Assembly (NCBI GenBank): GCA_023511675.1
Contig: JAIMBC010000003.1
Location: forward strand, 1-56,259
Length of the DNA: 56,259 nt
Direction: 5' to 3'
From: Pirellulales bacterium
GTDB taxonomy: Bacteria > Planctomycetota > Planctomycetia > Pirellulales > JAIMBC01
The position numbers and the translations under genes were made by a program. Numbering within the stretch: the first letter of the stretch is position 1; each line of letters begins with the position of its first letter. Shown in pieces: positions 17,440 through 50,933 of this stretch. Under the pieces are notes generated by a model. The model worked only from the letters and a program-made list of their open reading frames with translations. It had not been told where the DNA came from and did not search any database.

Positions 17440-17467
17440 ATTATCCCCGCCAAAGCTCGGCACGCAA
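17440..17467 (-). promoter_or_regulatory. Possible sigma-70-type promoter of hppA
   Basis: Minus strand reads TTGCGT (17467-17462), 16 nt spacer, GATAAT (17445-17440), about 200 nt upstream of the start. Confidence 0.3.
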
Positions 17468-17672
17468 GGGCAGCGTGGGGTACAACCCCCATCCCCCGCT
17501 CCTTCCGCCGCGAAGGAGGCGACATCGTCTCCGCAGCAGCTTTCCCTACCAGCCGTTTGCTCTTTTTGGAACGGGCAGACGTACGGCCTCTCAGCCACGC
17601 AGCCTGGCGTGATTGCGCGGGGCTGGGCCATGGTACCAGCCTCCACCGCTTGCCCTGCGCCCCTGAGCTGCG

Positions 17673-28314: not shown

Positions 28315-31300
28315 TTACTGGGCCTCTGCAGGCAGTGGCACGAGATGCACGGCTGCATCGGTGCAAGCCGCCGCCACTCGATCTGCTTGGGGATGATAGG
28401 CGGCGTAATAGGCCACAGCAGGCAGGCGGTGTGAGAACAGCGGCTTGCCCTCGGCGGCATCCCAGACGTGCAGGTGGCCGGCATAGCCGCAGGAGAGCAG
28501 GCGTGTGCCCTGGGGATTGAACACCACACGGTAGATGTGGTCTGTGTGGCCCGTACCGGACCAGCGCAGCTCGCTGGTGGCTACATCCCAGACGCGCACG
28601 GTCTTGTCCAGGCCGCCGGCGGCCAGCAGTCGGCCATCCGGGCTGAAGCAGACGGTGTACACGGGTGCCGCGGGGCCGGGGAGCCGTTTCAGTTCGCTGC
28701 CGGTGGAGGCGTCCCAAATGCGCACCGTGGTATCGGCGCCGCCGGAGGCGAGGAGGGTTCCGTCCGGGCTATAGGCCACAGTATAGACGCTTCCCTGATG
28801 GCCGGTGATCTGCCGCACCTGATTGCCGGTGGAGGTGTCCCAGATGCGGATGGTTTGGTCGGCACTCGCGGAGGCGGCCAGCGGCGATTGGGGCGCAAAG
28901 GCCACGGCATAAACGGGACCGCCGTGCCCTGCAAGCGTGCGTACTGCCTGAGGGCTGGCCTCCAGCCATTCCTTGACGGAGCTGCCGCTGGCAGAGTAAA
29001 GCGTCTTGTTATCGGGAGCGATGGCGACGGCGGCGATAGGTGCAGCATCGGTGAAGTCGTCCAGCAGCCTGCCCTGCTGACTTTGGAAGACGCGGAGATG
29101 GCCATCGTCTCCGCCTGCCAGCAGGCGGCTATTGTCCTGGCTGTAGGCCAGCGTGCGCACGGCCGCTGGCGTCTGGAGCTGCTGGATGAGTTCGCCGCCC
29201 GGGGTCCAGACATAGACCGTGCGGTTCGCGGAGCCGGCGGCAATCTGCTGGCCGTCGGGCCTGGCTGCGAGCGCAAAGAGCGGCCCTTCGGCCCCCTCCA
29301 GCAAACGGTTCTGATTGCCGTTGCCGTCGAAGGAGCGCACACGGCCGTCCTCGCCGGCGGCAGCCAGTGAGCCGTCCGGCAGCCAGGCCACGGCATTCAC
29401 GGGGCCGGGGCCGCAGGCAAGGGCGCGCAGCGCGCAGGTGCGTCTCAACCAGAGCGTGCCGTCTGCGGCGGCTGTTGCCAGCGTCCGGTTGTCATCGGCC
29501 CAGTGCACCGCCAGCGCGCCCATGCTGCCTGCCTCAAACTGCTCAAGGGAAAGGCCCGTTGATGGATCCCAGATCCGCACCAAACCATCGTCCGCGGCTG
29601 TGGCGAGCCGCTGGTTGTCTGGCGAGAATTTCAGTGCCGCTACGTTACCACCATGTGCCAGCCGCAGTGGTTCCGGCGGACCACCCTCGCGGGTCAGCTC
29701 GGCCACGTTCCACACGAGCACCTCCTTGCCCACGGCGACGGCCACACGCCCTCCATCACGCGAGACAGCTACGCGGCCCGGCTGGCCCCCCGCAAGCTGC
29801 ACGGCGGCCAGTACGCTGCCGTCTGCCGCATTCCACATCACCAGCCGACCGTCCTGCCCGGCCGAGACCAGCCGAGAGCCATCCGCAAACCAGGCCACGC
29901 CGCTTGCACCACCCTTGTGGCCAGACAACAGCATGGCGAGCGAGGTGGCAACCAGCCGAGCGCCGCCGTCCGCCGTGCTGGCCAGCAGCCAGCGATTGTC
30001 TGGTGCAAAGGCCACGTTGCGCACCGCCGCCGGAAACTCGAAGCGTTCCAGCAAGCGTGCGTCCTGGCTGGCGTAGAGCCGCAGTTCGCCGTTCTCGCAT
30101 CCGGCGGCAAACTTGTTTCCGTCGGGCGAGTAAGCCAGTGCCGTGATGCCGGCGGAGGCGCTTCGGCGCACAGCCTCCCCCGGCTGGGCCAGATTCCAGC
30201 GGAAGATGGTCCGGCCGCCAGCCGCCGCAAGTTCGGCTCCGCCGGGCCGCACGGCTAACGCGGCCAGCGGCGTATCGCCCGCCTCGAACTGCTGTACGGG
30301 GCTGCCCGCAACGTCGAACAGGCGCACACGGCCGTCGTCCCCCGCCGTGACAAACCTCGTGTCGTCCAGCCAGGCCACGGCCCCGCAGACCGATCGATGC
30401 GCTGCCACTGCCAGCTCGCAGGCCAGAGGCGTCACTGCGGCCGTACGATCCGCGGCAGCAGAGAAGAGCGTATTGCCCACGGCCGCCACGCCCAGCACCG
30501 GACCGCTGTGCCGCCCAACACGCTCCAGCTCGCGCCGCTGCGTCAGACTCCAAACGTGCACGGCACCGTCTTCACACGCAGCTGCAAGACGGTCGGGTTC
30601 GCGGAGTACTGCCAGCCCCTTCACCGGGGCTGGCAGCTCTAGGATCGCCTCCTGCTTGCCGAACGCCGCCGCCTGCGGATCCGCCAAGTTCCAGATGTGC
30701 AGCTTGCTGCCGGCCCCGCACAGCAGACGCTGGCCGTCGTGGCTCCATGCCACGCACGCGGCAGCCTCGCCTGCGTTCAGATTGGCCACTGCCTCCCCCT
30801 GCGCCAGGCTCCACACCCGCACCAAACCATCGGCCCCCGCGCTGGCGAGGCGCGACCCATCAGGCAGGTACGCCACACTCGATGCACCACCCTCATGTGT
30901 GCCAAGCACGGCAAGCAAAGACACCGCCAGCAGCCGGGCTTGATCGGCTCCGCCGGCCAGCACGGTCTTGCCGTCCGGCGCCATGGCAACGGTCATCAAA
31001 GGCGCAGTGCCGGCGCGAAGTTCTTCCAGCAAGTGGCCAGACGGAATCTCGAACACGCGCACCCGGCCATCTGCCAAGGCAGCCGCCAATCGTTCCCCTG
31101 AGGTTTTGAAGGCCAGGCCGACACACACCTGGGGAAGCTGCCAGCGCTGTACGGGTTGGCCTGTGCCTGTGTGCCACACCTGAACCGTCTCTCCGCTGGC
31201 CGCGGCGGCCAGACTGCCCGTCGGGGCAACCGCAACTGCGGCAATGGGACCTTCCAGGCCTTCCAGCGGCGTGCCTGCGGCGGCATCCGGGGGCCAGAGC

Positions 31301-34300
31301 AACACAGGCCCCTCTGCGCCGGCCGACACGATGGCCTCGCTGTCGGGCAGCCACGCGGCACGGGCTGGCCCTTGCTTCAAGGCGAGCACACGTTGAGCCG
31401 TGCGGGGCCAGAGGCGCACGGTACGATCGGCAGATGCTGATGCTACCCAACGGCCGTCGGCAGAGAGTGAGATTCCCAGCACGGCCGCGGCATGGCCCCG
31501 CAGGCGTTCGAGCGGCTGTCCCGTGGCGAGGTCGAAAATGGCGATGGACGCATCATCCAATGGGGCCAGCACCGTGTGGCCGGCGGAATCTACGGCCACA
31601 CCGCGGGGGACGGTATCCAGCGAAAGAGAGACCGGGGGCGTCTGCGGGTGGCTGAGATCCCACGCCAGCAACTGGCGTGCTTCGCTGGCTGCGGCCAGCA
31701 GCTTGCCGTTGTTTGCGGCGGCCAGGCCAGTTACAGTCGCGGAGGCGGTCAACTCAGCGATCGGCTGCGCGGCTGTGCGCGACCAGAGTCGCACTGTGCC
31801 GTCTGCGCCGGCAGTGGCAAGCTGTTGATCATCGAGCCAGGCGAGGCTGGTGGCAGCACCCTGGTGAGCGGAGTAAAGCGCCAGCAACGAGCGGGTGAAG
31901 ATGCGGACATGGCCGTCGGCTCCGCCCACGGCGATGTTGCGGTCGCTAGCAGCCAGGGCGGTGCAGCGCTGGGAGACGTTGGGCGTGGCAAACGTTTCTT
32001 CCAGGCGGCCGTCGCGGGAAACGACGCGCAGCAGGCCATCGGCGCATGCCAGGGCCAAACTGCCCTGGCCGCAGAAGGAGATTCCAGCAATATCAGCCGG
32101 CTGGGGGGGCAGGCTTGCCCCGGCAGCGCCGTCTGCCAGCCGCCACAGACGCACCACGCGATCGGCCCCGGCGGTTGCGGCCATTTCTTCACCGGCTGCC
32201 AGGTTTGTCAGACCGGCTCCATGGGCTGCGTTCCACGCAGGCGTGCCCTGAGCGTCGAACGTGCGCAGGCTGCCATCCGCAAGACCAACCAGCAGCCACT
32301 GTCTCGCGGCATACCTGACTTGGACCACAGGAGCGCCCAGAGCGTCGAGTTTGCGCAGCAAGGTTCCGTCGGCCAGCCGAAACACCGCCGCGGTTCCGTC
32401 GGCTCCACCGGCACAGATCTGATCTGCCGCGAGTGCCAGCGAGGTGAACTCGGCCTCATGTCCCGTACACTGAAGCACCTGCTGGAATGTGGCGGCATCC
32501 CACACACGCACGGTGCGGTCGGTGCTGCAAGTTACGATGCGGGCTGCATCCTGGCTCCAGGCCACGCCGGTTACGGGACCTGCATGGCCGCTCAACGTAC
32601 CGGCGGCCTCTCCCGTGTTGAGATTCCATACCTTCACCATGTGGTCGGCTGAGGCGGTGGCCAATAGCTTCTGATCGGGACTGGCGGCCATGACCAGAAT
32701 GGGCTGGCTATGGCCGGAGAGGAGTTGCGGGGCGACGGGCAGGCTCCACAAGCGCAGCGTGCCGTCTTCTCCCACAGAGGCCAGCACTCCCCCGCGTGGC
32801 GAGAAGGCCAGCGACCGCACCGCGCCTACATGACCAGCGAGGCTATAGCGATCCGCGCCGTCGGCAAGGCTCCACAGCCTGATCATGCCCGTGGCGCTCC
32901 CAGCCGCCAGGAGCGTCTCATCGCCGCTGGCGGCCAGCGACGTCACAGCACCGTTTTGTCCCTCGAACGCGCGCACCTGTTGCCCACTGGCTGCGTCCAG
33001 CAACCGGACCGTCTGATCGAGTCCACCGGAGACGACGTGGGTCCCTCCCCCCAGCACGACCACGGCCGTGGCCTGATCTGCATGGACCTGCCACGACCTC
33101 GCGGCTGCAAGCGGCAGCTCCCAGATGCGCAGGCTGCCGTCGGCCGACGCAGAGAGCAAGCGCGTGCCCGCCCCGTTGTACGACAGGCTATGCACCGCCC
33201 CTGCGGGGCTATGGAACTCTGCCAGCGGCGCGCCTTCGAAGTTCCAGAGGCGAATCTGCCCTGCCTGATCGGCAGTGGCAAGCTGAGGCTGCGCGGGATG
33301 GAACGCTGCTGCCGTGACGCCCTGCCCGTGAGCCTCCCAGGCACGAAGCTGGCTGCCATCGGCCAGCCTCCAAAGTCGCAGCACGCGGTCTGCGCCGGAC
33401 GTGCAGGCCAACTCTCCAGTGGGGCTGATGGCCGCCACCGTCACAGGCTGGGCATGGCCGCTGAGGACGCGCGGCGCGGTGGGGAGCTGCCACAGACGAA
33501 CGGTGCCATCGTCCGCCGCGGTCGCTAGGCCCTGGCCTTGCGGATGAAACGCCAGTCCCCGAACGGACGCGCCCCAGGCAAGCTGGAGCCGATCTGCCCC
33601 GTCGCCCGCGTTCCAGAACTGTATCACGCCATTGCTGCCGGCAGCGGCAAGCAAGCCGCCGTCTGGACTCACCGCCACCGCCCCTACGGCGCCTGGGACG
33701 TTATTGTACTGTCGCAGAGGCTGACCACTCGCAGCGTCGAAGGCGCGCACCGTCTGGTCCAAACTGCCTGTGTATGCCACCTGGCCCCCAGGCGCAGCAG
33801 CCACACAGGTCACCTGATCGGTGTGCCCAGACAAGCTGCGCGGCACGCTCTGGGGCAGGCGCCATAGCCGCACGGTTCCATCCCCGCTGGCGGAGACAAG
33901 TTGCTGCGAGTTGCCATGCCACGCTAACGACGTAACAGCCCCCCCTGCTGCGGTGAAGGCATGGAGCACGGCACCATCCTGGGTCTGAAGCAGGCGAATA
34001 TTGCCGGCTGCATCGCCACTGGCCACCAAGGCATTGTCTCGTCGAAAGGCCAGCGCCGTGATGGGCTGCGCTTGTGGAGTCAGTTCTCGCACGATCTGGC
34101 CATTGGCGGCATTCCAGAGCCGCAGCTTGCCATCCGCCGTGCCGGTGACAGCCCACTGGCCGTCCGCACTGAGACAGGCCCTGGCTTCTGCCGCGTCATG
34201 CCCTGCCAGCTCTCGCGGAGCTTGCGGCAGTTGCCAGATGCGCACAAAGCCATCCGCACCCGTGGTGGCAAGCTGCTGGTTGTTGGGGTGGATGGCCACG

Positions 34301-35352: not shown

Positions 35353-35517
35353 GGCAAGGTGCCTGCGAGGGGTCCGATCAAAGGTAGCATGGGTCGGGCA
35401 GACAAGTGTCTCGGCGGGTAGTTGCTGGCGGCGTTGGGGCCCGGCATCGGCCGACTAGCAGCCGCCAGCCGGGGAAAGATGGGTTGGTGTCTGGGGCGGG
35501 CGTGGCATGCGAGGTGC

Positions 35518-38500
35518 TCAGGGCGGGACGGTCTCGCTCTGCTGGACGTCTTGCGTGTCTGGCGGCAGCAGATGCACAAGTTGGCCGCTTTCGAAATGCC
35601 AGATGCGCAGGCTGCCGGAGTGTTCGATCGCTGCCAGCAATTGGGCATTGGCGGTGAGGTCGAGGGCGTTGACATAATCGGCCGCCTCCCAGGTGCGCAG
35701 CAGATTGCCGCCGTCGATTTCGTGCTGGCGGAGCAGCTTGTCTCCGCAGCCGGAGATGACGGTGGAGCTGCCGGGCAGGAATCGCAGTGCGGTGACCGGC
35801 TTGGCAAAGCCTTCGATGGCCAGCAGGGGCTCGCCGGCGAGAGGATTCCAGATGCGGACGACCCCCTCTGCGCCGGCGGAGGCGAGGCGTTCCCCATCGC
35901 TGCGCCAGGCCACGGCCAGTACATGGTGTGCGTGTCCCTCAAATCGTTGGAGTTCGCGCAGTTCCGGTACGCTAAACACCTTCACCAGCCGGTCCGCCCC
36001 TCCCGTAGCGAGATAGCGGCCATCCGGCGAAAACGCGGCTGCGAGCACGGTATCGCTGTGCGCCTGCGGCAGGTGGGCGATCAGCCGGCCGCTGGCCGCT
36101 TCCCAGAGCATCAGTTCCCCCGAGCGAGACGGATCTCCGCCTGCTGCGGCCAGCAGTGTGCCGTCGGGGCTGAACTCGAGGGCCAGCACGCGGTCTGCGG
36201 GCACATCCGCCTCTTCCCCCCCCAGTACACGGTGCAAGGGCCAGGCAGGCTCCAGCTCCCACGCGGCCGCGGTTAGCCCGCCCATGCTCGCCACGCCGCC
36301 AGCAACAAAGGCCAGGACGTGCACGGGCAGCGTGCCCGCTTCGATCACGTCGGCCGGCCGGCCCGTATCGTCTTGCCACAGGTAGATGGCGCCGCTCTCA
36401 CCTGTGGTGGCGACCACGCCCGGTGGTAAGAAGGCCGCGGCCGTGACGGTCCGCAGCGAGGTCTGAAACTCGGCCTCCAGGCTCTGCTGCCGCGTACGGA
36501 CCTCCTCGAGCGACTGCTGCAACATGCTCTTGATTGCCAGGCCGTTTTCGAGCTGGGTCTGGGCCTGGCGGTAAGCGGCCTGGGCATCTTCAGCCAGGCG
36601 GCGCGCTTCGCGCATGGCCTCCATGGCCTGCTGGGCGGCTTGCTGGGCTTGATCGGCTTCTGCCGCAAGCGCTGCGGCACGGGCCTGGGCCTCTGCCGCC
36701 ATGGGGGCCAGGGTGGCGGCGCGCTCTTCGGCTGCTGCGAGCGATTCGCGGGCTTGGTTCAGACGCTCGGCGGCGCGTTGGGAGTCGTGCTCGGCAGCTT
36801 CGGCTGCCTGGGCCAGCTTTTCGTCGTCACGCTTGGCAGCGGCGGCGCTGCGAGCTTGCTCGGCGCGCTGCGCGGCGCGCGCGGCAGCCTGTTCCAGCCG
36901 GGTGACTTGCTGCATAGCATCAGCCAGGGCGCGTTGCGCCTGGCGTGCCTGACGCGTGGCGGCAAAGGCGGCGGCCTGTGCCTGTTGCCACGCGTCCATG
37001 GCGCTTCGGAGCGTTGCCATCCGCTGGGCGTGGTCCCGTTCGGCAGCCGCGAAGGCGGTTTGTCTCGACTCGGCCTCGCTGGCACGCGGCTGGGCATCGT
37101 TCTGGGCTTGCGCCAGCAGTTCTTCATGTGCCGACAGGCGCAACTGAAGGCTCTCGGCTTGTCGCGCCAGCTTGGCGGCCTCTGCGGCCAGTCTGAAGTC
37201 TCCTTGCAACTCGCCGAGGAGCTGGCCGTCTTCAAGATTCCACAACCGGGCCGCGCCGTTTTCTCCGCCCGCAATCAGGCGTGCGCCGTCCGGCCGCACG
37301 GCAAGGGCGCGCACCGCGGCGCCCAACTCAAGCTGGCGCACAAGCTGGGCCTCAGCATTCCACTCTCGGACACGCCCTGCTGCATCTGCGGTGAACAGCC
37401 GGCCGTCGCCCACGGCCTCCATGGCCGTGAGGGGGTCATCGTGCGCCCGGATCCGGCGAGTTGCCAGCAGCGCATGGCGTCGTATCGTGCCGTCGCTGCT
37501 GCACGAGATGACACGCAGCGGGGCATCCTGCTGCTGGCTATCGACCACATCGATCCCCACTCCCGTGACCGCCGCGGTGTGCGAGGCGTACGCCTGTACG
37601 CAGCGGCCCTCTTGCACCTCGAACAGGCGCACCTGGCCCGCCGCATCTCCGCCGGCGGCAAAGCGGCCGTCCGAGGAGAAGGCAACACACGTGACAGGCG
37701 CGGTGAACCCCGTCAGCTCGCGCGCAGGACTACCGTTCTGCTCGAGCAGACGGATGCGTCCATCGTCGCACGCGGCGGCCAGCACATTGCCGGTGGGACT
37801 GACGGCAACGTCCCACCCCGCACTGCCCAGCTCCGCTGCGAATGCGGGCCGCAACTCCCCGTCCCACACGAGAAGCCGGCCATCCTCACCCGCCGAGACG
37901 ATGCGGCTGCCATCAGCACTCCAGGCCACGCTCCCCCTGCCTGCATGCGCGGCCGCCACTCTGGCCACGGGCAAGGCCGTACGCAACACGCTCCCCTCTG
38001 CTGCCACACACAGCACCTGGGAACCGGGCTGCCAGAACAAGGCATTGCACGGCGGGACATCCAGGGCAGACAACAACAGCCCTTGCGGGACATCCCAGGC
38101 ATGGACGCCGTTGGCATCCGCTGCCGCCACAAGAGTACCCTGAGAGTCAAGAGCCAACGCGTGCGGCGGCGTGCCCTGGCCGTCTGTGGCCGTCGTGATG
38201 GTCTGGATCACGCGCAGCGTCTCCAGGTCGATCACCTGGATGCCGGCGCGGTCGGTGAACTGGTGGCCTGCTTCCTCTTGCCGGTTCTGCCCAGTGGCAG
38301 CCTCTGCCGGCGCCGCGGGATCGGCGGCGGGTGGCTGGGGCGCAAATCGCACCGCCACGGCCGCTCGCGACGCCCCCGATGCCATGGCGAGTGCCACGGC
38401 CGGTCCGGCGAGCGGGACCGTGCGTGCCGATCCGAGATCGCTCAACGGCGCCGTGCGCAGCACGCCATCGCTGCCCACGGTAATCACATTCGACTGATGG

Positions 38501-40497
38501 AGGGCCATCCCCGTAACGCTCCCCTGATGCGCCGCCACGGTAAGCGGCGATGCAAGCTGATGCATGTTCCAAAGGCAGACGCGTCCGTCGGCCTCCGCAG
38601 TCAACAGAGTTTGCTGGTCCACGAAGCACACGGCCGTGGCTTGCTGATCGTGGGCCGGCCAGTGCGCCAGCTCCGGCATGCGCCGATCTGCCAGGTCCCA
38701 AACGCGCACCGTGCCGTCGTCGGCGGCCGTGGCCAAACGCTGTGCATCGGGAGAAAAGGCCAGAGCGCGAATCTGCTTGGTGTGGCCCAACAAGAGATGC
38801 GTGGTTGCTCCCTGTTCGAGATCCCGGACCACGGCCGCCGGCCGCCCGTCGATTTCCTCCGCCGTGGCAAGCCAGCGGCCGTCGTAACTGAGGGCGGCAG
38901 CCGTGGGCCGTGCCTCGTTCTGGCAAAGGGCGGCCGCCTCCGCATCCAACTGCCAGAGCCTCAGCGCACCATCGTCCGTCGCAACGACCACCCGACGGCC
39001 CTCGGGATGCACGGCCAGATCGGCCACGCGAGCCTGCCCGAGCCGCAAAGTCTGCAAGATCTCATTTGCATCGAGCGAAGCGACCTCCACCCTGCCCACA
39101 GCCGGAGCGAACGCGGCCCGGCTGCCGTCTGGCCACAACGCCACACGCTCCAGATGACCGGCTTCTCCGCGGGCAACCGTGCTGATCCTGAGATCTTCGA
39201 GAGTCAAACGGCGGAGGCGGCCATCCTGCCCGCTCACCAGCGCGCTTCGTGCAGGGGATACGACCAACGACGTGGCCGGAGCAGACAACCGCGCAATGCG
39301 CTGAGAGGCCGGCTGCTGGAGTGCCCAGTACTGCACGTAGCCGTCGCCGCTGCTGGTGGCGATGTGCGTCTCGTCCACAAGGGCAAGGTGGCGCACGGGA
39401 GCCGGCGTGATCAGCCGCCGCAACTGCCGGCTACTCTCCACGCTCCACACGCGTACGGTTCCGTCCAGCCAGGCGGCGTACAGCACTTGGCCATCGGCAG
39501 AGAACCGAACCTGCGATATGCCCGCGGCGTGGCCCCGCAACACGCCTTCCAGGCGGCCATCGACTGCGGCCAGCAGATGGATCTGTGCGTCTCCCACCAC
39601 CACCGCCACCAGACGGCCATCAGGGCTGGCAGCCAGAACGCCCGCCGACGGTCGCGCCGCGCCGCCATCCGCCATGCCCTCCTGCTGGGGCTCCGCCCCA
39701 CTCCATTGCCAGCGGCGGACGTCCCTGGGACGACGCCAAACTCGTATTGTCTTGTACCCGCCCGCGGCCAGCAGTTCGCCGGTCGGATCGAAGGCGATGG
39801 CACGCACGCCGTCTCGATCGGCCTGCCCGCTCGCCAGGGCTGGGTCGGCAAGCTGTGCTACCAACCGTCCCGTCTGAGTCTGATACACAAACAACTGCGT
39901 CCCTCGGCTGAAGGCCACCAGGGCATCATCGCTGCTGAAGCGCACGGCCCAACCGGGCTTCCAGGCAGCAGGCGGCTGGCGCCAGCGCACCGCGGCACGC
40001 CGCGATGAGACGCTGCCCGAGGCACCCTCTTCGATCCAGCGACGCAATACCTCGAGTTCTGCGTCGCCAAGCGGCTCTGCTCCCACCTGATTGTCAGGCG
40101 GAGGCATGGCCGGCTCGGTGCGGCCGCTGGTTAGGGCCAGGAGCAGGCTGTCCACGGGATTGCCGGGTACCACGGCGGGGCCGCGGGAGCCGCCGGAGCG
40201 GATGGCCTCGGGCGTCTCCAGTACCAAGCCACCTTCGCTGCGAGACGCGCTATGGCACGCCAGGCAATGCGCTTGCAGAATGGGCAGCACATGCTCTTCA
40301 AAACGAACCTTGTCTGCCGCTGGCGTGCCGGGCTGCGGAGGTTGCCCCAGCACCGCCGGATTGCAGGCAACCATGCTCATGGCAAGCCCTGCACAGCAGA
40401 GGCCTGCCCAGACGCGAGACCAGTTCGGTGGGAAAGGCAGTTCGTGGGTAAAGCGAGTCGGCATCATTGCCAGTACATCAGGGGCTGTGCTTGCCAT
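35518..40497 (-). CDS. Planctomycete cytochrome c (PSCyt1-like) + WD40 repeats (28 blades) with inserted coiled coil
   Basis: Signal-like hydrophobic segment, then VRFEEHVLPILQAHCLACH...GGLVL...AVVPG.P..SLL...MPP...WIEEGA (CxxCH at 40252-40266), WD40 blades, and an Ala/Gln/Glu helical insert at about 36455-37200. Start is 40497 or 40467. Confidence 0.9.
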   Translation of the reverse strand: MASTAPDVLAMMPTRFTHELPFPPNWSRVWAGLCCAGLAMSMVACNPAVLGQPPQPGTPAADKVRFEEHVLPILQAHCLACHSASRSEGGLVLETPEAIRSGGSRGPAVVPGNPVDSLLLALTSGRTEPAMPPPDNQVGAEPLGDAELEVLRRWIEEGASGSVSSRRAAVRWRQPPAAWKPGWAVRFSSDDALVAFSRGTQLFVYQTQTGRLVAQLADPALASGQADRDGVRAIAFDPTGELLAAGGYKTIRVWRRPRDVRRWQWSGAEPQQEGMADGGAARPSAGVLAASPDGRLVAVVVGDAQIHLLAAVDGRLEGVLRGHAAGISQVRFSADGQVLYAAWLDGTVRVWSVESSRQLRRLITPAPVRHLALVDETHIATSSGDGYVQYWALQQPASQRIARLSAPATSLVVSPARSALVSGQDGRLRRLTLEDLRISTVARGEAGHLERVALWPDGSRAAFAPAVGRVEVASLDANEILQTLRLGQARVADLAVHPEGRRVVVATDDGALRLWQLDAEAAALCQNEARPTAAALSYDGRWLATAEEIDGRPAAVVRDLEQGATTHLLLGHTKQIRALAFSPDAQRLATAADDGTVRVWDLADRRMPELAHWPAHDQQATAVCFVDQQTLLTAEADGRVCLWNMHQLASPLTVAAHQGSVTGMALHQSNVITVGSDGVLRTAPLSDLGSARTVPLAGPAVALAMASGASRAAVAVRFAPQPPAADPAAPAEAATGQNRQEEAGHQFTDRAGIQVIDLETLRVIQTITTATDGQGTPPHALALDSQGTLVAAADANGVHAWDVPQGLLLSALDVPPCNALFWQPGSQVLCVAAEGSVLRTALPVARVAAAHAGRGSVAWSADGSRIVSAGEDGRLLVWDGELRPAFAAELGSAGWDVAVSPTGNVLAAACDDGRIRLLEQNGSPARELTGFTAPVTCVAFSSDGRFAAGGDAAGQVRLFEVQEGRCVQAYASHTAAVTGVGIDVVDSQQQDAPLRVISCSSDGTIRRHALLATRRIRAHDDPLTAMEAVGDGRLFTADAAGRVREWNAEAQLVRQLELGAAVRALAVRPDGARLIAGGENGAARLWNLEDGQLLGELQGDFRLAAEAAKLARQAESLQLRLSAHEELLAQAQNDAQPRASEAESRQTAFAAAERDHAQRMATLRSAMDAWQQAQAAAFAATRQARQAQRALADAMQQVTRLEQAAARAAQRAEQARSAAAAKRDDEKLAQAAEAAEHDSQRAAERLNQARESLAAAEERAATLAPMAAEAQARAAALAAEADQAQQAAQQAMEAMREARRLAEDAQAAYRQAQTQLENGLAIKSMLQQSLEEVRTRQQSLEAEFQTSLRTVTAAAFLPPGVVATTGESGAIYLWQDDTGRPADVIEAGTLPVHVLAFVAGGVASMGGLTAAAWELEPAWPLHRVLGGEEADVPADRVLALEFSPDGTLLAAAGGDPSRSGELMLWEAASGRLIAHLPQAHSDTVLAAAFSPDGRYLATGGADRLVKVFSVPELRELQRFEGHAHHVLAVAWRSDGERLASAGAEGVVRIWNPLAGEPLLAIEGFAKPVTALRFLPGSSTVISGCGDKLLRQHEIDGGNLLRTWEAADYVNALDLTANAQLLAAIEHSGSLRIWHFESGQLVHLLPPDTQDVQQSETVPP

Positions 40498-43400
40498 CGA
40501 GATCCTCCCCTGGCGCGGCCGCGGGCGCGATCCACACCCGGAGGGGCCGCAGCACCTCGACTCCCTGGCCGTTGAAGCCGAGCGAGAGCCGCAACACGGC
40601 CTGGTGCGTGCCGAGTGCCGCATCCGGGGCTGCTTCCACCCGCAAGGCGCCCGCGGTCTGCTGCGGCTCGAGATACAGGCCTGAGGCACCAAGGCCCGCG
40701 GCGCCCTCGGGCAGCCCTAGTTCGACGGAAACCCCCTCTTCAAAGCCGAACAGGCGTACGATCGAGATGGGCAGCTCGACGCTTGTACCCGGGGCAACGG
40801 TCAATTCAGCGGGCACCGTCAGCTCGAGAGGGGCTTCGGCCACATCGATGGTCACCGAAGTCGACGGATAGGCCGCGGCATAGCCACGCGTCGCGGCTGC
40901 TTCGGCCAGCTCCGCTGCCAGGCGTTCGAGTTCGGCAAACCACTCCGCGGCCTCTGCCGCGGCGCGCTCAGCGTGAGAAAGGGTCTGTTGGGCCTGGTCG
41001 AATTCAGCTACAGCGCGTTCGAGCGCTAGCCGGCGGTGTGCCAGTTCTTCTTGAATGCGCGTGAGCTGGCTAAGGGCAGCGTCTCGTCGTTCTTGGGCAT
41101 CCCTGGAGCGTGCAGCCGCTTGTTGTAGCTGCTCGGCCAGAGCGGGGTCTGCGGGGGCTTCCTTGGCGGCGCGGCGAGCGGCCTCGAGTTGCTCGGCGGT
41201 CTGGGCCGCTTGCGCATCGGCTTCCGCACGTGCCTGTTCTGCGGCATCGAGTTCGATGCGGCCGTCTTCAACCTGGCTGCGTGCTTGCGCCAGGTTCTGC
41301 TCCGCCGCTGCGAAGGCCTCGGCGGCACGGTTGGCCGCCGCCTGCACCTCGGGCAGGGCCGCTTCCACAGCCGCCTTGCGTGCCGCGGCTGCTGCCGCGG
41401 CCTCGGGATTGCGGGCATACGGCACCTCGGCCACTCCCATCAGAGAGAACGTGTAGCGGCCTGTTGGGCAGTCTCCAGGCAGAATGAGTTCTAACGTGCC
41501 CGACGAGGCGGAACCTTCCAGATTCAGTTCATTGATCTGCTGCAAGCCGGGCGGACCGCCGCGCAGTGCAAAAGAGACGCTGCCCGCAAACCCCCCGCGC
41601 CGTACCACCTGTACGGGTATGGAAAGGCGGGCGCCGCGGCAGGTAGACAAGGCGGGCTGTTGCGTCTCCCCCAGTCGCGCGGTGAAAGGGGCCGCCTCTG
41701 CCAGAACGTGCAGCGGCAGCGCTGCACTCACCCGTGCGCGGGGCAAAGGAGGCCGCCGCGGATCGTAGGGCACCGTGCCGGCCAGCGCCGTGCGTTCCAC
41801 CACGCGGCCGCCTAAGGTGGCCCTCGCCACCACGCGCAGGTATGCCAGCGCCGGCTCCACTGCTTCATCCGCCACCAGCGTCACACTTCCGGCAGACAAC
41901 CCCGGCCCCAGCACGGCCGGCTCCGCGCTCACGCCCGGCGGCAGGCCTTCGATTTGCACCTCGACCTCTCCCGCAAAGCCCTGAATGCGATACAGAACCA
42001 GGTCGATGGTCTCCACGCCGCCAGCGCGCAGCACCAAGGGCCAGACAGCCGGCGAGCGATCGTTGGGATCCTCTCCCACTCCAGCGGTACGCGGCAGGGC
42101 AACCAGCGAGAAGTCTGGCTCGGCCTGGCGGATCAGCAGACAATACGCATGGCGCGGGTCGGCGGCTGGATTTCCGGTGAGATCCCGCAGCATCAGGCGG
42201 TATCGGCCGTCTGCCGGTGCCACAAAGAGCAGGGCGGGGTCTTTGGACTCGCAGTAGTCGGCCTGGTCGGGATGTGCGTCCAGGTCGTCGACGGCGGCCA
42301 GCTCGAGGGCTTGCTCGTTCCCCTCGTCGTCGCGCACAACCTGGTGGATCACCAGCAACGGGTCGGTCGGCAAGCCGAGACGGTGAGAGAGGACTTCGAT
42401 CCACAACGCCTCACCGCCGTTTGCATCAAAGGCGTACCAATCTCGATCGGCGCGCGAGAAGGTGCCCACCAGCTCACAGGGTACTTGCAAGGGCTGCGGC
42501 CGAGCGGGCTGGTTGTTGGGCTCACGTTCCTGTGCCAGAGGCGCAGCGGCGAAGAATAGCCGTACCGGATTGGCCGTTCCGTGCTGCGAGCGAAACAAGA
42601 GGTCGATCCCATCGAGCGCCTGGGGCGCCAGCTCCAGGGGCAGGCCAGCATGTTCTCCCCACGCCAGGACGCCGCCCATGTCCGCCGCTGTTGGAAGCGA
42701 GAAGCCTGCCACATCCTGCGAGTCCATATCGGGCGCAGCCGGAACCGGCCCCTCCGTTGCGCTGTCTGGGTGGGGGGGCTGACCGGCCGCGCCGGCAGGG
42801 GGCAGTTCCGGCGAAGCAGAGGAGCGGACCGTGCCTGGCCGTGCAGGCGATGAATTTTCCGCTGCCGGCTCGGACGCCCGGGCCGCAGCCGTGGCACCTT
42901 CCAGCACGGCCTGAAGGAAGCGTACCGAGGCGTCGGGAAGAGACAGCTCTAGGGAAAGCTCTTCCAGCTCATGGTTTCCGATGCGCACTCCCTTGGCCCG
43001 CTTGCCCCCGATATTGCGGCCGTACAGGGTGATGCGGCTGCTTTGTCCGGCGGGGATGGCCGGCGGAAACACCATATCGATGTACGGCCCCGTCGTGGCA
43101 TGCAGGCGGTACACATAGCCGAGCATGCCGTCTCCGCCGTACGCCGCGTCATGCACGGCCACATGGTAGATCGCGGGCCGCGCGGGAGTCACATCCAGGA
43201 TGGCACGCCCGTACACGCCGCTCGTAGCCGTGGCAAGCTGGGCTCCCTGCTCGTCATGCAGCACGAGCGTGGGGGCAGCACGTGAGTCGATCTGCCTTGC
43301 CTCGCACACGATCAGCGTCCGTGCCGCCCCTAAGGCCAGGCGGTACACGTCCACGTCTCCTTCTCCCTCCAGCACGCCATTGGCCACCGCCTCCAGCGTC

Positions 43401-43834
43401 AGCTCCGTGGCTGCATCGCACTGGTTGTTCGGTTCCGTTTCACGCACTTCAGGCCGGCTGCCCACCATGAATGGCCGCGGATTGGAAAGACCGTACCTTC
43501 CCTGGACGCGCAGTTCATACGTGCCGGCAGCAACCTCCGCCCCGATTGAAACGATGAAGCGATTGGCCGCCACTTGCGGTTCGCTCTCCGTCAACCTGGG
43601 GGGGCGCATCAGCGGTTCGGCCGCAATGCCCGGATGAGAGGCGATCAGCCGTGCGGGCTCTGCCGCCGCCCCATCCAGGTCCGCGCCGGCTACCTCCACT
43701 TCCACACGGGTACCCGCCTGTCCTCCAGCGGGGAACAGGCCATACAGCCGCGCTATGGGCAACTGTGCCTCCGCAGCGCGCAGCACAAGCAGGAGCCACA
43801 AGCAAAGGCAGCCGCACGGTACTTTAGGCCGCAT
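40478..43834 (-). CDS. Exported PPC (pre-peptidase C-terminal)/Ig-like repeat protein with inserted coiled coil
   Basis: Signal peptide, LFPAGGQAGT.VEV.V.G.DL, two E.EPNN motifs, DVDVY/DRDWY, DP.L.F.APADG.Y and PDFSL, plus a helical insert at about 40885-41420. No protease catalytic motif seen. Confidence 0.85.
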   Translation of the reverse strand: MRPKVPCGCLCLWLLLVLRAAEAQLPIARLYGLFPAGGQAGTRVEVEVAGADLDGAAAEPARLIASHPGIAAEPLMRPPRLTESEPQVAANRFIVSIGAEVAAGTYELRVQGRYGLSNPRPFMVGSRPEVRETEPNNQCDAATELTLEAVANGVLEGEGDVDVYRLALGAARTLIVCEARQIDSRAAPTLVLHDEQGAQLATATSGVYGRAILDVTPARPAIYHVAVHDAAYGGDGMLGYVYRLHATTGPYIDMVFPPAIPAGQSSRITLYGRNIGGKRAKGVRIGNHELEELSLELSLPDASVRFLQAVLEGATAAARASEPAAENSSPARPGTVRSSASPELPPAGAAGQPPHPDSATEGPVPAAPDMDSQDVAGFSLPTAADMGGVLAWGEHAGLPLELAPQALDGIDLLFRSQHGTANPVRLFFAAAPLAQEREPNNQPARPQPLQVPCELVGTFSRADRDWYAFDANGGEALWIEVLSHRLGLPTDPLLVIHQVVRDDEGNEQALELAAVDDLDAHPDQADYCESKDPALLFVAPADGRYRLMLRDLTGNPAADPRHAYCLLIRQAEPDFSLVALPRTAGVGEDPNDRSPAVWPLVLRAGGVETIDLVLYRIQGFAGEVEVQIEGLPPGVSAEPAVLGPGLSAGSVTLVADEAVEPALAYLRVVARATLGGRVVERTALAGTVPYDPRRPPLPRARVSAALPLHVLAEAAPFTARLGETQQPALSTCRGARLSIPVQVVRRGGFAGSVSFALRGGPPGLQQINELNLEGSASSGTLELILPGDCPTGRYTFSLMGVAEVPYARNPEAAAAAAARKAAVEAALPEVQAAANRAAEAFAAAEQNLAQARSQVEDGRIELDAAEQARAEADAQAAQTAEQLEAARRAAKEAPADPALAEQLQQAAARSRDAQERRDAALSQLTRIQEELAHRRLALERAVAEFDQAQQTLSHAERAAAEAAEWFAELERLAAELAEAAATRGYAAAYPSTSVTIDVAEAPLELTVPAELTVAPGTSVELPISIVRLFGFEEGVSVELGLPEGAAGLGASGLYLEPQQTAGALRVEAAPDAALGTHQAVLRLSLGFNGQGVEVLRPLRVWIAPAAAPGEDLDGKHSP

Positions 43835-43851
43835 GAGCCATTGCCCTAGGT

Positions 43852-46557
43852 CTAGTGGTTGAACTGAAATTCCTTGGTGTTCACCAGGGCCCAGAGAATG
43901 TCTTCCAGGGCCTGGCGCTTGTCTTCAGCCCGCTGGAGGTGGCCGAGGGTGAGCTGCAACTCTTCCGCCGTGGGACGCCTGGCAAACGCCCAGGCATAGA
44001 TTTCTTCGACGCGCTGGGTGTCGGTGAGCGACTCGTCCGCGGCGAGCCGAGCCGCCCGCCCCCCCTCCGCGGCGAGCCGAAGCTGGACCTCTTCCGAGTT
44101 CAGCAGGTGCAGGCTCTGCGCCAGGTTCGCCTCGCTGGAGCGTTCGCACTCGCAGGCACTGGTCCCCTCGGGCCGGCCGAAGATCTGCAAGAAGTAATTG
44201 CTAATGCTGCTATCGGGAAGCTGCACGGCTCGCGTTCCAGCAGGCAAGCCGGAGAATTCGGGTACCGTGCCGGTAAGCTGATGCAAGGCGTCATACAACA
44301 CCTCGGCTTGCAGCCGCCTGGGATAATAGTGAGAGAAGTTGCGGCGATCGAACTGATTGAGCCCGCTCGGCTCGGAGGCGAGCTGATAGGTTTGAGAGCG
44401 GCAAATGGTGCGGATCAGCTCCTTGAGATCGAAGCCGCTGCGCACAAAATGCTGGGCCAGCGCCTGCAACAACTCCGGATGGGAGGGAGGATTGGTCACC
44501 CGCATGTCGTCTTCGGGATCGACAATGCCGCGGCCGAAGAAGTGCTTCCAGTAGCGATTCACCAGCGCCGCGGCAAAGTAGGGATTCTCCGCAGAGGCCA
44601 TCCAGTCGACGAGCGCCTGCCGCGGATCGTCGTCGGGGTCGATCGTCAGGGGCGTGCCTCCCAGCACGGCCGGGGGTAGCGTCTCCCCGGTGCGGGGATT
44701 CACCGCGCCGGCCTGGCCGCGGTCGTGGAACACGGCCGGCTCGTCATTGCCAAGCCCCCCAGAACCTGGCTTGATCCCCACCCGAGAAAAGAATGCCGCC
44801 AGCGAGTAATAGTCGTGCTGGCTCCAACGCTCGAAGGGATGATGATGGCAGCGTGCGCACTGGATGCGCAGCCCGAGGAATAATTGCGCGGTATCCTCCA
44901 CCTGCAATTCCATGGTGTTTACCATGCGATACCACGCCACCGGCGGATGCTCCAGAAGCTCGCCCGTGGCCGCCAGAATGCTGCGCACAAACTCGTCGTA
45001 CGGCATGTTCTCGTATATCGCCTGGCGAATCCAGCCGTGGAAAGCGTATGTGCCTCGCGCCGCGTTATCGTTCGTGCGGCGGTTGCGCAGAATGGCATTC
45101 CACTTGGCGGCGAAAAAGTCGGCATATTCCGGCGAGGCCAGCAGCCGCTCGATCAGCCGCTCACGCTTGGCCGCGTCCCGCTCAGCCTCGAAGGCGCGCA
45201 ACTCTTCCGCTGTAGGCAGCCGGCCGGCGATGTCGAGCGTGGCGCGGCGCAAGAACGTGGCATCATCGCACGGGGGAGAAGCGGGCAAGCCCAACGCTTG
45301 CAGGCGGGCGAACACCAGCTCGTCGATGAAGTTGCGTGGCTGCGGCATGGCGGGCGGAGGCCCATCTGCCGGCAGCGTGGCCCGAAACACGGCCACCTCC
45401 CCTTGATAGCGCGCCATGACTGCCACGTCTCCTATCCCGTCCAGCGCGCGCACCAGGCCGTTGCGCTTCACCTCAGCCATCTCTGCGTCGTTCGACTCGA
45501 ACTGCGCCAGCGCCGTGACGTCTTGCTGCGTGCCGTCGCTGAAGCTGGCCAGCACCACAAGCTGCTGCTCGCCGCCCTGCCTCATCGTCCGTTGTGCGGG
45601 GTAGACATCCAGCCCCGCAATCACCGGATCCTCGGGCGTGCCGTAGCGCAGGCCCTGCTCCATCCAGCGCACGAGAAGCTGATACTCGGGCCCATCCGCC
45701 TCCACACGCCGCCCCCCTCCGTGGGCCAGCGTGCCGGTCGCCTTCAGCAACAGCAAGCTCCGCTCGGGAGCCGCGGGAAACACCCTTCGCCCACGCGCCT
45801 CCTTGGTCAAATACTCATAGTCCTCGTCGGGATAAAACCCCAGCAGCGATAGCTTGAACCCGTTCTGCCCGCTCGACTTGCCGTGGCAGGCCCCCGCGTT
45901 GCACCCGTGCTTGGTGAAGATGGGCACAACCTGATTCACAAAGTTGATCGGCGGCGGGTCGGCCAACTGCGCCACCTGAAGCTCGATCCGCGCCCGCAGC
46001 TTGCCCGGCCCCCGCGCCGTCACGCGCACTCTGCCCTCGGCAATCGGCTTGACCAGCCCAGCCGCATCGACCTCCACCACGCCCGCCGGAAGCGCCTCGT
46101 AGTGCACGCGCCGCGTCAGGTCCACCAGTCGGCCGTCAGCAAGGCGGCCGGTCACCAGGAGCTGCTTGCGGGCATCGGCACCGTGCAATTCGTTTGGCCC
46201 GTGCTGTTCGAACAGGATTTCGACGACTTCGGCGGACGTGCCGGTGCCTTGCTTTGCCTGTGGATCGCTCTGACACGGGTCGCTCCACGCCAATGCCAGG
46301 GCGAAGCCCAGGACGGCGGCCGCCCCCGCGCAGCCAAACCGAGATCTGGTCTCGAGCGCAGTGCCTCCGCCACGCCCTGCCCTACGGGACGCTTCCTCAC
46401 GCTGGCCGCCCGCAGATGGGCCGAGGGGGCCTTGCCCCGTACGGCCCCCCAACCGCGGTGGGCTCCAAAACAGGCTCTTCGGGGGCTTGCCGGGGTAAGA
46501 GCGTCCGCTCGAACATGCAACCCGCTCATCCCCGTGGGAAGATGCTCGTATCCGCAT
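43852..46557 (-). CDS. DUF1549 + DUF1553 (PSD1) protein with N-terminal Ig-like domains; start uncertain
   Basis: NFVNQVVPIFTKHGCNAGACHG..GQNGFKLSLLG, NFIDELV..L..LG, FLRRATLDIAGRLPT, FLGLRIQCARCHHHPFERW, NPYFA..VNRYW..FGRGIV.P.DD, RRLQAEVL.D, CECER, EDILWALVNTKEFQFNH. Confidence 0.92.
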   Translation of the reverse strand: MRIRASSHGDERVACSSGRSYPGKPPKSLFWSPPRLGGRTGQGPLGPSAGGQREEASRRAGRGGGTALETRSRFGCAGAAAVLGFALALAWSDPCQSDPQAKQGTGTSAEVVEILFEQHGPNELHGADARKQLLVTGRLADGRLVDLTRRVHYEALPAGVVEVDAAGLVKPIAEGRVRVTARGPGKLRARIELQVAQLADPPPINFVNQVVPIFTKHGCNAGACHGKSSGQNGFKLSLLGFYPDEDYEYLTKEARGRRVFPAAPERSLLLLKATGTLAHGGGRRVEADGPEYQLLVRWMEQGLRYGTPEDPVIAGLDVYPAQRTMRQGGEQQLVVLASFSDGTQQDVTALAQFESNDAEMAEVKRNGLVRALDGIGDVAVMARYQGEVAVFRATLPADGPPPAMPQPRNFIDELVFARLQALGLPASPPCDDATFLRRATLDIAGRLPTAEELRAFEAERDAAKRERLIERLLASPEYADFFAAKWNAILRNRRTNDNAARGTYAFHGWIRQAIYENMPYDEFVRSILAATGELLEHPPVAWYRMVNTMELQVEDTAQLFLGLRIQCARCHHHPFERWSQHDYYSLAAFFSRVGIKPGSGGLGNDEPAVFHDRGQAGAVNPRTGETLPPAVLGGTPLTIDPDDDPRQALVDWMASAENPYFAAALVNRYWKHFFGRGIVDPEDDMRVTNPPSHPELLQALAQHFVRSGFDLKELIRTICRSQTYQLASEPSGLNQFDRRNFSHYYPRRLQAEVLYDALHQLTGTVPEFSGLPAGTRAVQLPDSSISNYFLQIFGRPEGTSACECERSSEANLAQSLHLLNSEEVQLRLAAEGGRAARLAADESLTDTQRVEEIYAWAFARRPTAEELQLTLGHLQRAEDKRQALEDILWALVNTKEFQFNH

Positions 46558-46972
46558 GGGAACTACTCCTCGGCCAGAACCATCTGCGGTACGGCGGCTC
46601 ACCGCGGCACGTGCCAGCTTCGGGCGGCGCTGTGGTGGCAACCGCCACCAATGCGGGCCGCCAGGCAGCTCCCTCACCGCATGGCAGGTCCACATACCGT
46701 CCTGTACCGGAGGGACCACGGGCACATCCCTTCGCTAGGCCTAACGGGCAGGCAGCCACACGGGCCGCCTGGGCCTGGCGGCTCGAGGCATGCGCGGTCC
46801 TTTGCAACAACTTGACTGGTGCGGCTCGTTGGTTTCGTTATTCTCGCCGGCATGAGCCACGATGCAACCCACGGCCCCGGAGCAAGCTCCATTGAGACCA
46901 TGCCCGCGGGGAAGCAAGCCAAGTTTGGCCCGCCGCGGGCGATGACACCACCCTCGTGACGGCAGCGGCAGC

Positions 46973-47246
46973 TTACTGCCGCCCCGCAGCCTTGTGGCGC
47001 TCGTAGAGCGAGGTGAAAAAGCAGATCAGCACGGCACCAATCGCCAGCCCCGCCAAGGCCCCCTGGGTGGCCCCTGCGTCTAACCCAAACTCAAGAGGTT
47101 GGAACGAAGGTGCCTCTCCACCGCGGACGATGGCACGATAGTAGCCTGGGGCAAAAGTGCCCACGCCCCAGCCAATCAGGGCGCCCAGCAGAGATCCGCC
47201 CCCCCACGCTCGCCAACTAGACTCCCAAGGCACGCCACTCAGTCAT
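46973..47246 (-). pseudogene. Small membrane protein gene, apparently disrupted (in-frame TAG plus frameshift in a G7 run)
   Basis: GAGGAG RBS and ATG at 47246 give MTEWRALGV* (TAG at 47219-47217), then LASVGG. Removing one G from the G7 run joins this to GSLLGALIGWGVGTFAPGYYR...GALAGLAIGAVLICFF. Confidence 0.5.
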
Positions 47247-47423
47247 ATGATTGCTCCTCATTCGCCTCGGCCCAGCGCGGCGCGGCAAATCGCCTTCACG
47301 GCCAAACAACCGGGGCCGCCGTGGCCGGCACTCGTGCCGCGGCCATGTTCCTGGCGTACGCCGCGCTGGCCACTTCCACACATTGTACATATTCCGGCGG
47401 CGCCAACTGCCGTGGGGCGGCTC

Positions 47424-47514
47424 ACCTGGCCCGCTTGAGAGGCGGGCTCAGCGTGCAATTTCCAAAGCGCGGCGGACCTGCTCGTACCTGGCCCGCTCGA
47501 GAGGCGGGCTCGGC
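47424..47514. repeat. Two 29-bp hairpin-forming direct repeats separated by 33 bp
   Basis: ACCTGGCCCGCTTGAGAGGCGGGCTCAGC (47424-47452) and ACCTGGCCCGCTCGAGAGGCGGGCTCGGC (47486-47514), 2 mismatches, each with a GCCCGC/GCGGGC stem. Confidence 0.85.
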
Positions 47515-47533
47515 ACCGCCCCCGCTGCCCGAG

Positions 47534-47623
47534 CCGCTGGAGGAACGTGCGCTGCACGCGATAACTGGTTCGACACCGCGAACGTCGGTCACCCAGCCTC
47601 CGCTCCCGCGGGAGGAACGTGCG
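47534..47623. repeat. Second direct-repeat pair CCGC(T/G)GGAGGAACGTGCG
   Basis: Copies at 47534-47551 and 47606-47623, with similarity extending into (G)CTG(G)CAC. Confidence 0.75.
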
Positions 47624-47721
47624 GCTGGCACCTATTCCGCGCCCAGACCCCAGATTAGAATCATCAGCGGGATACGCATTTCCACGGTCGCCTACCGCGT
47701 CACCTGGCGCAACCACCAATT

Positions 47722-50505: not shown

Positions 50506-50933
50506 CGTGGCGGGGACCGTAACACAACCCGCGCTGGGCCGCAACGGCGATCTTGGCCGGTACGGCGCAGGCATTCTCACAACCCCGCTGCTGCTCTCGC
50601 CTGCGCTGGCTCACAAACCATCACCAAGCTGTGGACCTGCGGCGGCCTGCCTCTTGTGCCGGCCCGCTGGTGTGAGACGGTCCGCTGAGCTGGTGCACCG
50701 GCCGCATCTCTGCCCTGGCCTGCGACTCTTTGCCCACTCATGCGGCAAGGTCGGCCCCTGTGCCGGCCGTGTGAGGCACCGCGCAACGCTGGCCCGTTGA
50801 CAACTCCCCCACGTTGGCCCACTGTGGTCCCCCCTTTCCGCGGCAAGCCGCCACTCCCCTCTACCCAGCGGCATGGCTGCCGCCGAGAATGAACCAGGGC
50901 ATTTTGTGTTGCCGACGCTACGCCCCCCCTGCC

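Follow-up and report, generated by a model that had tools for sequence, protein, structure and literature searches.

Do four adjacent, co-oriented genes of a planctomycete encode one exported system, what would that system do, and has its kind been seen before? These questions are raised by a 56,259-bp stretch of DNA from a Pirellulales bacterium (contig JAIMBC010000003.1 of assembly GCA_023511675.1, positions 1 to 56,259; hereafter the window), in which four long open reading frames (ORFs), here named A, B, C and D, follow one another on the minus strand. The initial annotation, made from the letters of the window, had regarded the four genes as a candidate undescribed system that places redox centers and possibly DUF1501 enzymes in the periplasm or at the surface. 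We find that A, B and C form the core, a conserved three-gene operon, which is well supported by comparison of related genomes. The cluster is a distinct, Planctomycetia-wide variant of a known but uncharacterized kind, and D is not a core part of A-B-C but a giant protein in its own right, widely conserved and with about eight predicted propellers.

Gene layout and conservation

The genes and the signal-like segment of A are located as follows.

43852..46557, minus strand: gene A (ORF 43852..46725), 901 amino acids (aa) from ATG 46557 or 866 aa from TTG 46452
46285..46332, minus strand: signal-like hydrophobic segment of A, from the sequence and the list of start codons
40478..43834, minus strand: gene B, 1118 aa, a predicted exported beta-sandwich/PPC chain with a helical hairpin
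35518..40497, minus strand: gene C (ORF 35518..40692), 1659 aa, start ATG 40497 or ATG 40467
28315..35352, minus strand: gene D, 2345 aa, predicted to be exported, with 56 WD40 blades

The four products add up to 901 + 1118 + 1659 + 2345 = 6023 aa. Genes A and B are separated by 17 nt and C and D by 165 nt, and B and C overlap by 20 nt or lie 10 nt apart, depending on the start of C; the ORFs and start codons confirm the co-orientation, gaps and total of about 6000 aa that had been reported for the four genes. B and D begin with classical N-terminal signal peptides. In A the only in-frame start codons precede the hydrophobic segment by 40 to 75 residues, and in C such a segment is present only with a start at 40497 or 40467; the publicly listed C gene (1620 aa) starts within it. 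Since an N-terminal hydrophobic segment is found in nearly all orthologs of A, B and C, export of the A-D products is a sensible reading of the sequences, and the signal-like N-termini claimed earlier are supported in the window and in the orthologs. A lipoprotein anchor for C was rejected, as the Cys that follows its hydrophobic segment varies among orthologs.

The host assembly of the window comprises 5.9 Mb in 422 contigs, and the comparison collection holds no genome of the same family. Matches to B at E <= 0.001 were found in 36 of 41 genomes, namely the window's own and 40 of the same order. From each of 20 same-order genomes we took 20 kb around the best B match, with an upstream extension of 6-10 kb added for 16 loci. 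Genes A, B and C are co-oriented and occur in the same order at 15 of these 20 loci, the C frame being interrupted in one; the others carry A-B only (3/20, one of them cut by a contig end), B-C (1/20) or B alone (1/20). When 151 genomes were sampled evenly across the phylum, B had strong matches (E <= 1e-40) in the window's genome and in at least six genomes of one family from another order of the same class, a count that is a floor because this first-look search was stricter. Four loci of that family contain A-B-C (2/4), B-C (1/4) and A-B'-DUF1501 (1/4). A search of genome and metagenome contigs for related loci with B found none, and one with a three-row B alignment gave two distant loci only (L049, L050).

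Genomes with the cluster carry one to three copies of it, and A-B-C is present in the complete genomes G025 and G110. Besides the window, the host genome holds at least two further ABC-type copies, which are broken by the ends of contigs (C84, C56, C96, C270). The A proteins of these copies group with orthologs from different genomes and not with each other; the duplication or transfer is therefore an old one. A quick maximum-likelihood tree, built from 31 A-type proteins and rooted at the midpoint only, places the 21 ABC-type rows in one clade with a Shimodaira-Hasegawa-like approximate likelihood ratio test (SH-aLRT) value of 99; one other row, linked to DUF1501, is nested in it on a long branch, and the sister of the clade is a DUF1501-linked paralog.

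The same protein types are also joined in natural fusions. One protein (P0066) links a PSCyt1-WD40 part to a B-like chain, and in a set of 12 longer A-type representatives, five combine PSCyt1-WD40 with an A-like protein; the other seven carry modules of carbohydrate-binding type, Laminin_G_3 or F5/8 type C (two), a weak hyaluronate-lyase N-terminal beta domain (two), Big_2 only (one) or nothing more (two). At the level of sequence, fusions and synteny argue for A-B-C as one functional unit. It is very improbable that the four genes are independent exported proteins brought side by side by chance. That view can point to the solitary D-like genes of other genomes and to the loci with A-B, B-C or B alone, but A-B-C keep their order and orientation at 15 of the 20 loci of the same order and also outside that order, the fusions connect the protein types, and related clusters in two other phyla group the same three types.

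Gene D does not share this conservation. Its 56 WD40 blades, detected with a blade hidden Markov model (HMM) at residues 53-2337, would make about eight seven-bladed propellers if the rings close. Both C and D have the tandem blades of WD40 beta-propeller proteins (Pfam, blade HMM). A recent repeat expansion of D was rejected, DNA tandem repeats being absent. The homologs of D include full-length proteins at 73-76% identity and a family of 2350-2530 aa at 31-36% identity over 98-100% of the length. A second WD40 gene adjoins C at none of the 16 other same-order loci with C. In genome G013 a D-like gene (2390-aa frame) lies on a contig other than that of A-B-C, and its neighbors, encoding a TIM-barrel protein, FliG and an HDOD protein, are unrelated. 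The earlier four-gene unit is therefore upheld for A-B-C by synteny and fusions and not upheld for D.

In the nearest relatives, matching contig sizes suggest that D is near the cluster: B and D homologs P0002 and P0073 are both on 74,339-bp contigs, and C and D homologs P0345 and P0075 are both on 55,328-bp contigs. A further C homolog at NCBI, P0344, is listed on a different contig of 27,649 bp. In another order, locus L054 (G043:C14) has a large WD40-only gene at 14663-18259, directly upstream of A and on the same strand. Here a giant propeller gene is associated with the cluster for a second time, independently of D, and such WD40 genes may therefore join it repeatedly.

Domain architecture of A, B and C

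Searches with Pfam and NCBIfam detected no catalytic domain in A-D, in agreement with the initial annotation. Protein A consists of the following parts.

45970-46227 and 45367-45627, minus strand: Big_2 domains flanking the N-domain (Pfam E 1.6e-07; match to LigA 8gyr)
45640..45951, minus strand: cytochrome-c-like N-domain, CX4CH codons 45883-45903
44779..45327, minus strand: PSCyt2 (DUF1549; Pfam E 4.4e-52, genome scan), CXXCH codons 44845-44859
43948..44622, minus strand: PSD1 (DUF1553; Pfam E 3.5e-48)

The family of A is large (40,709 representatives at E <= 0.001), and we aligned 75 representative A-type sequences. Both attachment motifs are invariant among them: C184, C189 and H190 in the CX4CH of the N-domain, and C532, C535 and H536 in the CXXCH of PSCyt2. 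The N-domain is not scored by the Pfam PSCyt1 model, and a profile-profile comparison (hhalign) identifies it as homologous to the PSCyt1 domain of C with a probability of 95.6% and E 1.3e-08; a conserved His of A stands at the position of the invariant Met-Pro-Pro of C. Predicted to be exported, and with heme-attachment and axial-ligand motifs, A and C have the sequence features of c-type cytochromes. A weak match to the ResB family exists in the host genome.

An AlphaFold2 (AF2) model of A, with a predicted local distance difference test (pLDDT) score of 90.2 and a predicted template modeling (pTM) score of 0.88, arranges the chain as Big_2, a small helical cytochrome-like domain, Big_2 and a core of about 500 residues that is largely helical. 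Residues 168-271 match the diheme cytochrome FoxE (5mab, Z 8.5, VIA), and Big_2 matches LigA (8gyr, Z 14.5) in the structure search. Sequence and profile searches of the PDB with A returned Big_2 matches only, with no solved relative of the core.

Protein B is divided into five parts.

42941..43750, minus strand: first Ig-like/PPC/Ig-like module, residues 29-298, PPC about 128-248
42662..42925, minus strand: Pro/Ala/Ser-rich insert, residues 304-391 (alignment A2)
41417..42610, minus strand: second PPC module and beta-sandwich domains, PPC about 438-571, beta-sandwiches to residue 806 (DSSP on the model)
40895..41407, minus strand: two-helix hairpin arm, helices 810-892 and 897-980 (DSSP on the AF2 model)
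40529..40888, minus strand: C-terminal beta-sandwich, residues 983-1102 (AF2)

The AF2 model of B has a pLDDT of 83.7 and a pTM of 0.77. The Pfam matches to PPC (E 0.0013 to 0.0047) are under the family cut-off; the 71 homologs of B at E <= 1e-10 mostly carry precomputed PF04151, and a search of the ESM Atlas gave PPC clusters only. By structure, residues 128-248 match the collagen-binding domain of ColG (1nqd) with Z 17.2 and a root-mean-square deviation (rmsd) of 1.7 A over 109 of 111 residues, and that of ColH (3jqw) with Z 16.3, and the first module has a profile match to the collagenase entry 5iku (E 3.8e-4). The second PPC is seen by Pfam at 463-549 (E 0.0013), and the ColG tandem 5iku aligns over residues 130-570. 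The 88-residue insert between the modules is missing in relatives that are 65-68% identical, and is predicted to be disordered, with pLDDT below 50.

The hairpin of B breaks at P-A-D-P and has a length of about 12 nm in the model. Residues 808-985 show a 3.5-residue (heptad) periodicity of hydrophobic residues with z 8.3 against shuffled sequences, and an arm-like segment is present in 20 of 21 B frames. The hairpin matches the antiparallel hairpins of PrgA (6z9l, Z 14.5) and colicin E1 (7nna, Z 13.8), Z-scores that may be generic for helical structures. The C-terminal beta-sandwich, which matches the linker domain of a sialidase (1eut, Z 11.2), is kept at 13 of 20 same-order loci (tblastn).

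Protein C combines one cytochrome domain with propellers on both sides of an arm.

40093..40266, minus strand: PSCyt1 domain with CXXCH and Met-Pro-Pro
37222..39957, minus strand: N-terminal propellers, 19 blades (blade HMM)
36448..37215, minus strand: helical arm, residues 1095-1350, heptad periodicity
35581..36447, minus strand: C-terminal propeller, the best-conserved part, with invariant columns G1444-W1540

Pfam assigns WD40 (E 1.2e-100) and PSCyt1 (E 5.6e-15) to C, and the CXXCH and Met-Pro-Pro of PSCyt1 are invariant in the 19 orthologs of the C alignment (A4). The 25 blades detected, 19 before the arm and six after it, correspond to about four seven-bladed propellers on the assumption of closed rings. 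Orthologs of about 1000 aa keep only the first of the roughly three N-terminal propellers; the propeller insert is found in the window, L014, L017 and L054 and partially in L027 (A4). The conserved parts of C are 36-49% identical to the window, with 36-44% in the C-terminal propeller by tblastn. In that propeller, Pro-Ser-Arg and His-rich motifs are invariant in 19 of 19 orthologs and, judging from their conservation, may mark a metal, heme or partner site. Over residues 1095-1360 the hydrophobic residues of the arm have a 3.5-residue periodicity (z 9.8 against shuffles) with a central dip, an arm-like segment is present in 16 of 17 C frames, and an NCBIfam match to coiled coils of structural maintenance of chromosomes (SMC) proteins is far under the cut-off.

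Most structural elements named in the initial annotation are recovered in this way. The putative heme sites are found as CX4CH and CXXCH in A and CXXCH in C, the PPC/Ig domains by the ColG match and Big_2, the two coiled-coil arms by their heptad periodicity, and the propeller rods by the 25 and 56 blades of C and D.

In line with the initial annotation, such proteins could form a mainly structural periplasmic scaffold or spacer, with or without D, in which propellers, Ig chains and helical arms would make up a lattice or struts and the hemes would be structural or redox-sensing. This is distinctly unlikely in our judgment. It would suit the total of about 12 propellers, the many beta-sandwiches, the lack of a catalytic domain and the rigid hairpin arm of B with the longer arm of C, and a correlation of 0.852 between clusters of this kind and internal membranes is given in the accessible part of Kamneva et al. 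2012 (PMC3542564). However, the non-repetitive heme protein A is by far the most conserved, with PSD1 identities to the window of 55-67% among orthologs versus 33-45% for B at same-order loci, and an active core therefore fits better than a strut. The arm lengths differ by large insertions and deletions among orthologs, which is odd for a fixed spacer. In addition, the view of planctomycete internal membranes that lies behind the correlation has since been revised, which weighs against a structural role.

A bolder possibility, which we consider remote, is that A-B-C, joined by D in this lineage, is a heme-wired assembly that spans the envelope and is peculiar to Planctomycetia. The helical hairpins, about 12 nm long in B and as much as about 19 nm in C if its arm also folds back, would extend from a heme core near the inner membrane and reach outer-membrane components, docking there as the hairpins of adaptor proteins and colicins do on TolC or BtuB. 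If true, this assembly would be a protein conduit for electrons, or for macromolecule capture, across an unusually wide periplasm.

A candidate heme-c complex and its surroundings

The explanation that we favor, tentatively and at somewhat less than even confidence, is that A-B-C is an exported heme-c complex for electron transfer and ligand recognition. A, B and C would be exported by Sec and would join in the periplasm to form one complex with A at its center. The PSCyt1 heme of C, with His/Met-type ligands, would exchange electrons with the two hemes of A, namely the CX4CH heme, for which the conserved His replaces the Met of C, and the CXXCH heme of PSCyt2. The PSCyt2-PSD1 core of A would be the active or ligand-binding part. 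The two PPC modules and Ig domains of B, together with the propellers, would hold a macromolecular ligand or partner proteins, and the helical arms would serve as rigid spacers or docking arms.

Several results weigh against this explanation. The start codons of A and C are uncertain, and five of the 20 same-order loci have no A or no C beside B. A scan for consensus promoters and terminators gave no minus-strand signal, and the predicted folding of the spacer between C and D does not exceed that of shuffled sequence. For the core of A (residues 365-866), the Foldseek and VIA lists were crowded by Ig (Big_2) matches and no site was assigned. Arm lengths do not covary across 16 B/C pairs, so a heteromeric B-C coiled coil is not indicated, and this pairing was dropped from consideration. 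Finally, a role for D in the unit is unsupported beyond the nearest relatives. A complex prediction for B 930-1118 with C 1290-1649, run on separate alignments and without controls, scored 0.00 against a mark of 0.32 and counts neither for nor against binding.

PSCyt, PSD and DUF1501 are among the most expanded families of Planctomycetes and Verrucomicrobia. The variant is a clean entry point for biochemistry, with one to three copies, strong conservation, no DUF1501 partner and confident models of A and B; answers on the heme, the PPC ligand of B and co-purification would probably transfer to hundreds of paralogous clusters.

The cluster is bounded upstream by two features.

46558..47721, no strand: spacer of about 1.1 kb that separates A from the PP2C phosphatase gene
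47722-49050, plus strand: PP2C phosphatase gene, divergent from A

Downstream, a peptidase-C45/AAT-like gene lies 281 nt from D. An 86-aa ORF in the upstream spacer (46973-47233, minus strand) has, by eye, the look of a membrane protein with two hydrophobic segments, and no Pfam match. Rfam and tRNA scans of the window gave nothing useful. Two minus-strand ORFs, 47692-48894 (400 aa) and 50577-52100 (507 aa), were rejected as operon members, being antisense to the PP2C and class-V aminotransferase genes. Like the plus-strand ORF 36640-40008 (1122 aa), antisense to C, they are artefacts of high G+C content; one of the three matches another genome by tblastn (40%), owing to conservation of the sense gene there.

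Elsewhere in the window, positions 1-2000 have a G+C content of 0.495 versus 0.62-0.70 in the remainder. They contain no tRNA or Rfam match, and an ORF at 1115-1834 (minus strand) has no Pfam family; this end of the contig may consist of foreign or non-coding DNA. A 975-aa ORF (17673-20600, minus strand) without a Pfam or NCBIfam match adjoins a membrane H+-pyrophosphatase gene (14563-17325).

Comparison with known systems

Contrary to the initial suggestion, this kind of cluster has been described before. The accessible part of Kamneva et al. 2012 (PMC3542564) presents a cluster of Planctomycetes-Verrucomicrobia-Chlamydiae (PVC) genomes that comprises DUF1501, a signal-peptide protein with a weak PPC match, PSCyt1-Big_2-PSCyt2-PSD1 and PSCyt1-WD40. 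There its function is unclear, and cytochromes handing electrons to proteins or sugars are proposed. Proteins A, B and C correspond to the three architectures other than DUF1501, with signal peptides in all. The cluster in the window differs in that it has no linked DUF1501 and is ordered A-B-C instead of C'-B'-A'-DUF1501; moreover, helical arms and additional C-terminal domains are found on B and C, C has two more inserted propellers, and a giant WD40 gene follows. We found the classical C'-B'-A'-DUF1501 order in metagenome-assembled genomes (MAGs) of Acidobacteria and Verrucomicrobiia (L049, L050); the hit spans put C' at an estimated 440 aa or so and B' at about 780 aa.

The DUF1501 matches nearest to A in the window, at 3234-4451 and 8384-9610, are about 34 kb away, with none among the flanking genes, and across the 14 orthologous loci with upstream sequence, DUF1501 is directly upstream of A at two. 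The earlier suggestion that the assembly positions DUF1501 enzymes therefore finds no backing in gene linkage. The two window DUF1501 genes (3231-4607, minus strand; 8033-9613, plus strand) flank a 783-aa gene (4906-7254, plus strand) with a sub-threshold DUF4139 match, and are examples of unpaired DUF1501 genes, with no PSCyt2/PSD1 partner nearby.

It is conceivable, if on the whole unlikely, that A-B-C still serves a DUF1501 enzyme (sulfatase-like, often exported by twin-arginine translocation) that is encoded elsewhere and acts on glycans or other polymers, as is assumed for the DUF1501-linked clusters, so that only the linkage was lost. The host genome has 50 PSCyt2 matches (A being one), 38 PSCyt1 and 73 DUF1501 matches, and the excess of DUF1501 over PSCyt2 means that unpaired DUF1501 genes exist, the two in the window included. 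In the tree, both the sister of the A clade and the row nested in it (C388, L057) are linked to DUF1501, two of the 14 loci have the gene directly upstream, and the Acidobacteria and Verrucomicrobiia loci retain it. Yet no DUF1501 gene is adjacent at the other 12 loci, about 70 copies per genome would place one within 10 kb by chance at an estimated one in eight loci, and the domain gains of the variant suggest an altered role.

The classical cluster, the DUF1501 linkage data and the tree of A together define the variant as a distinct, derived form of a known kind. New in it are the A-B-C order, the unlinked DUF1501, the added arms and C-terminal domains of B and C, and the single clade of A; a form without DUF1501 may already be drawn in the supplementary figures of PMC3542564.

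Gene pairs of PSCyt2/PSD1 (DUF1549/DUF1553) and DUF1501 in Planctomycetes and Verrucomicrobia are described in PMC2754498 and PMC5615132, which cite Studholme et al. 2004, as far as their accessible parts go. Those of PMC2754498 and PMC5587647 give counts and neighborhoods of these genes only, and that of PMC5615132 states that nothing is known of PSCyt gene function. No functional study of PSCyt, PSD or DUF1501 genes was found in the literature searched, which was mostly outside subscription journals. Protein A shares the family of these pairs but belongs to a distinct subclade with no DUF1501 neighbor, and differs by its PSCyt1-like N-domain, which has CX4CH in place of CXXCH and stands between two Big_2 domains.

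By analogy, A-B-C may be compared with the cytochrome domain CjX183 of Cellvibrio Cbp2D, which lies beside a DUF1587/PSD-type domain according to the accessible part of PMC8981238. Both have single c-type heme domains in multidomain exported proteins with binding modules; they differ in the PSD/PSCyt group, and here no lytic polysaccharide monooxygenase or other acceptor enzyme is encoded. The clostridial collagenases ColG (1nqd) and ColH (3jqw) share the fold of B 128-248 at an rmsd of 1.7-2.3 A and about 20% identity; B has a second PPC copy at about 438-571 and no peptidase domain. Envelope hairpins (PrgA, the arms of colicins E1, E2 and E9, the adaptors HlyD, MacA and AcrA) and SMC arms superpose on B 807-981 with Z 10-14.5, a likeness of shape alone, the adaptor, colicin and SMC domains being absent from B.

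The membrane-coat-like proteins of PVC bacteria consist of a beta-propeller followed by an alpha-solenoid and are cytoplasmic or membrane-coating. The proteins of the cluster are of another type: their arms are heptad-periodic, that of B is a hairpin and not a solenoid, and export signals are present.

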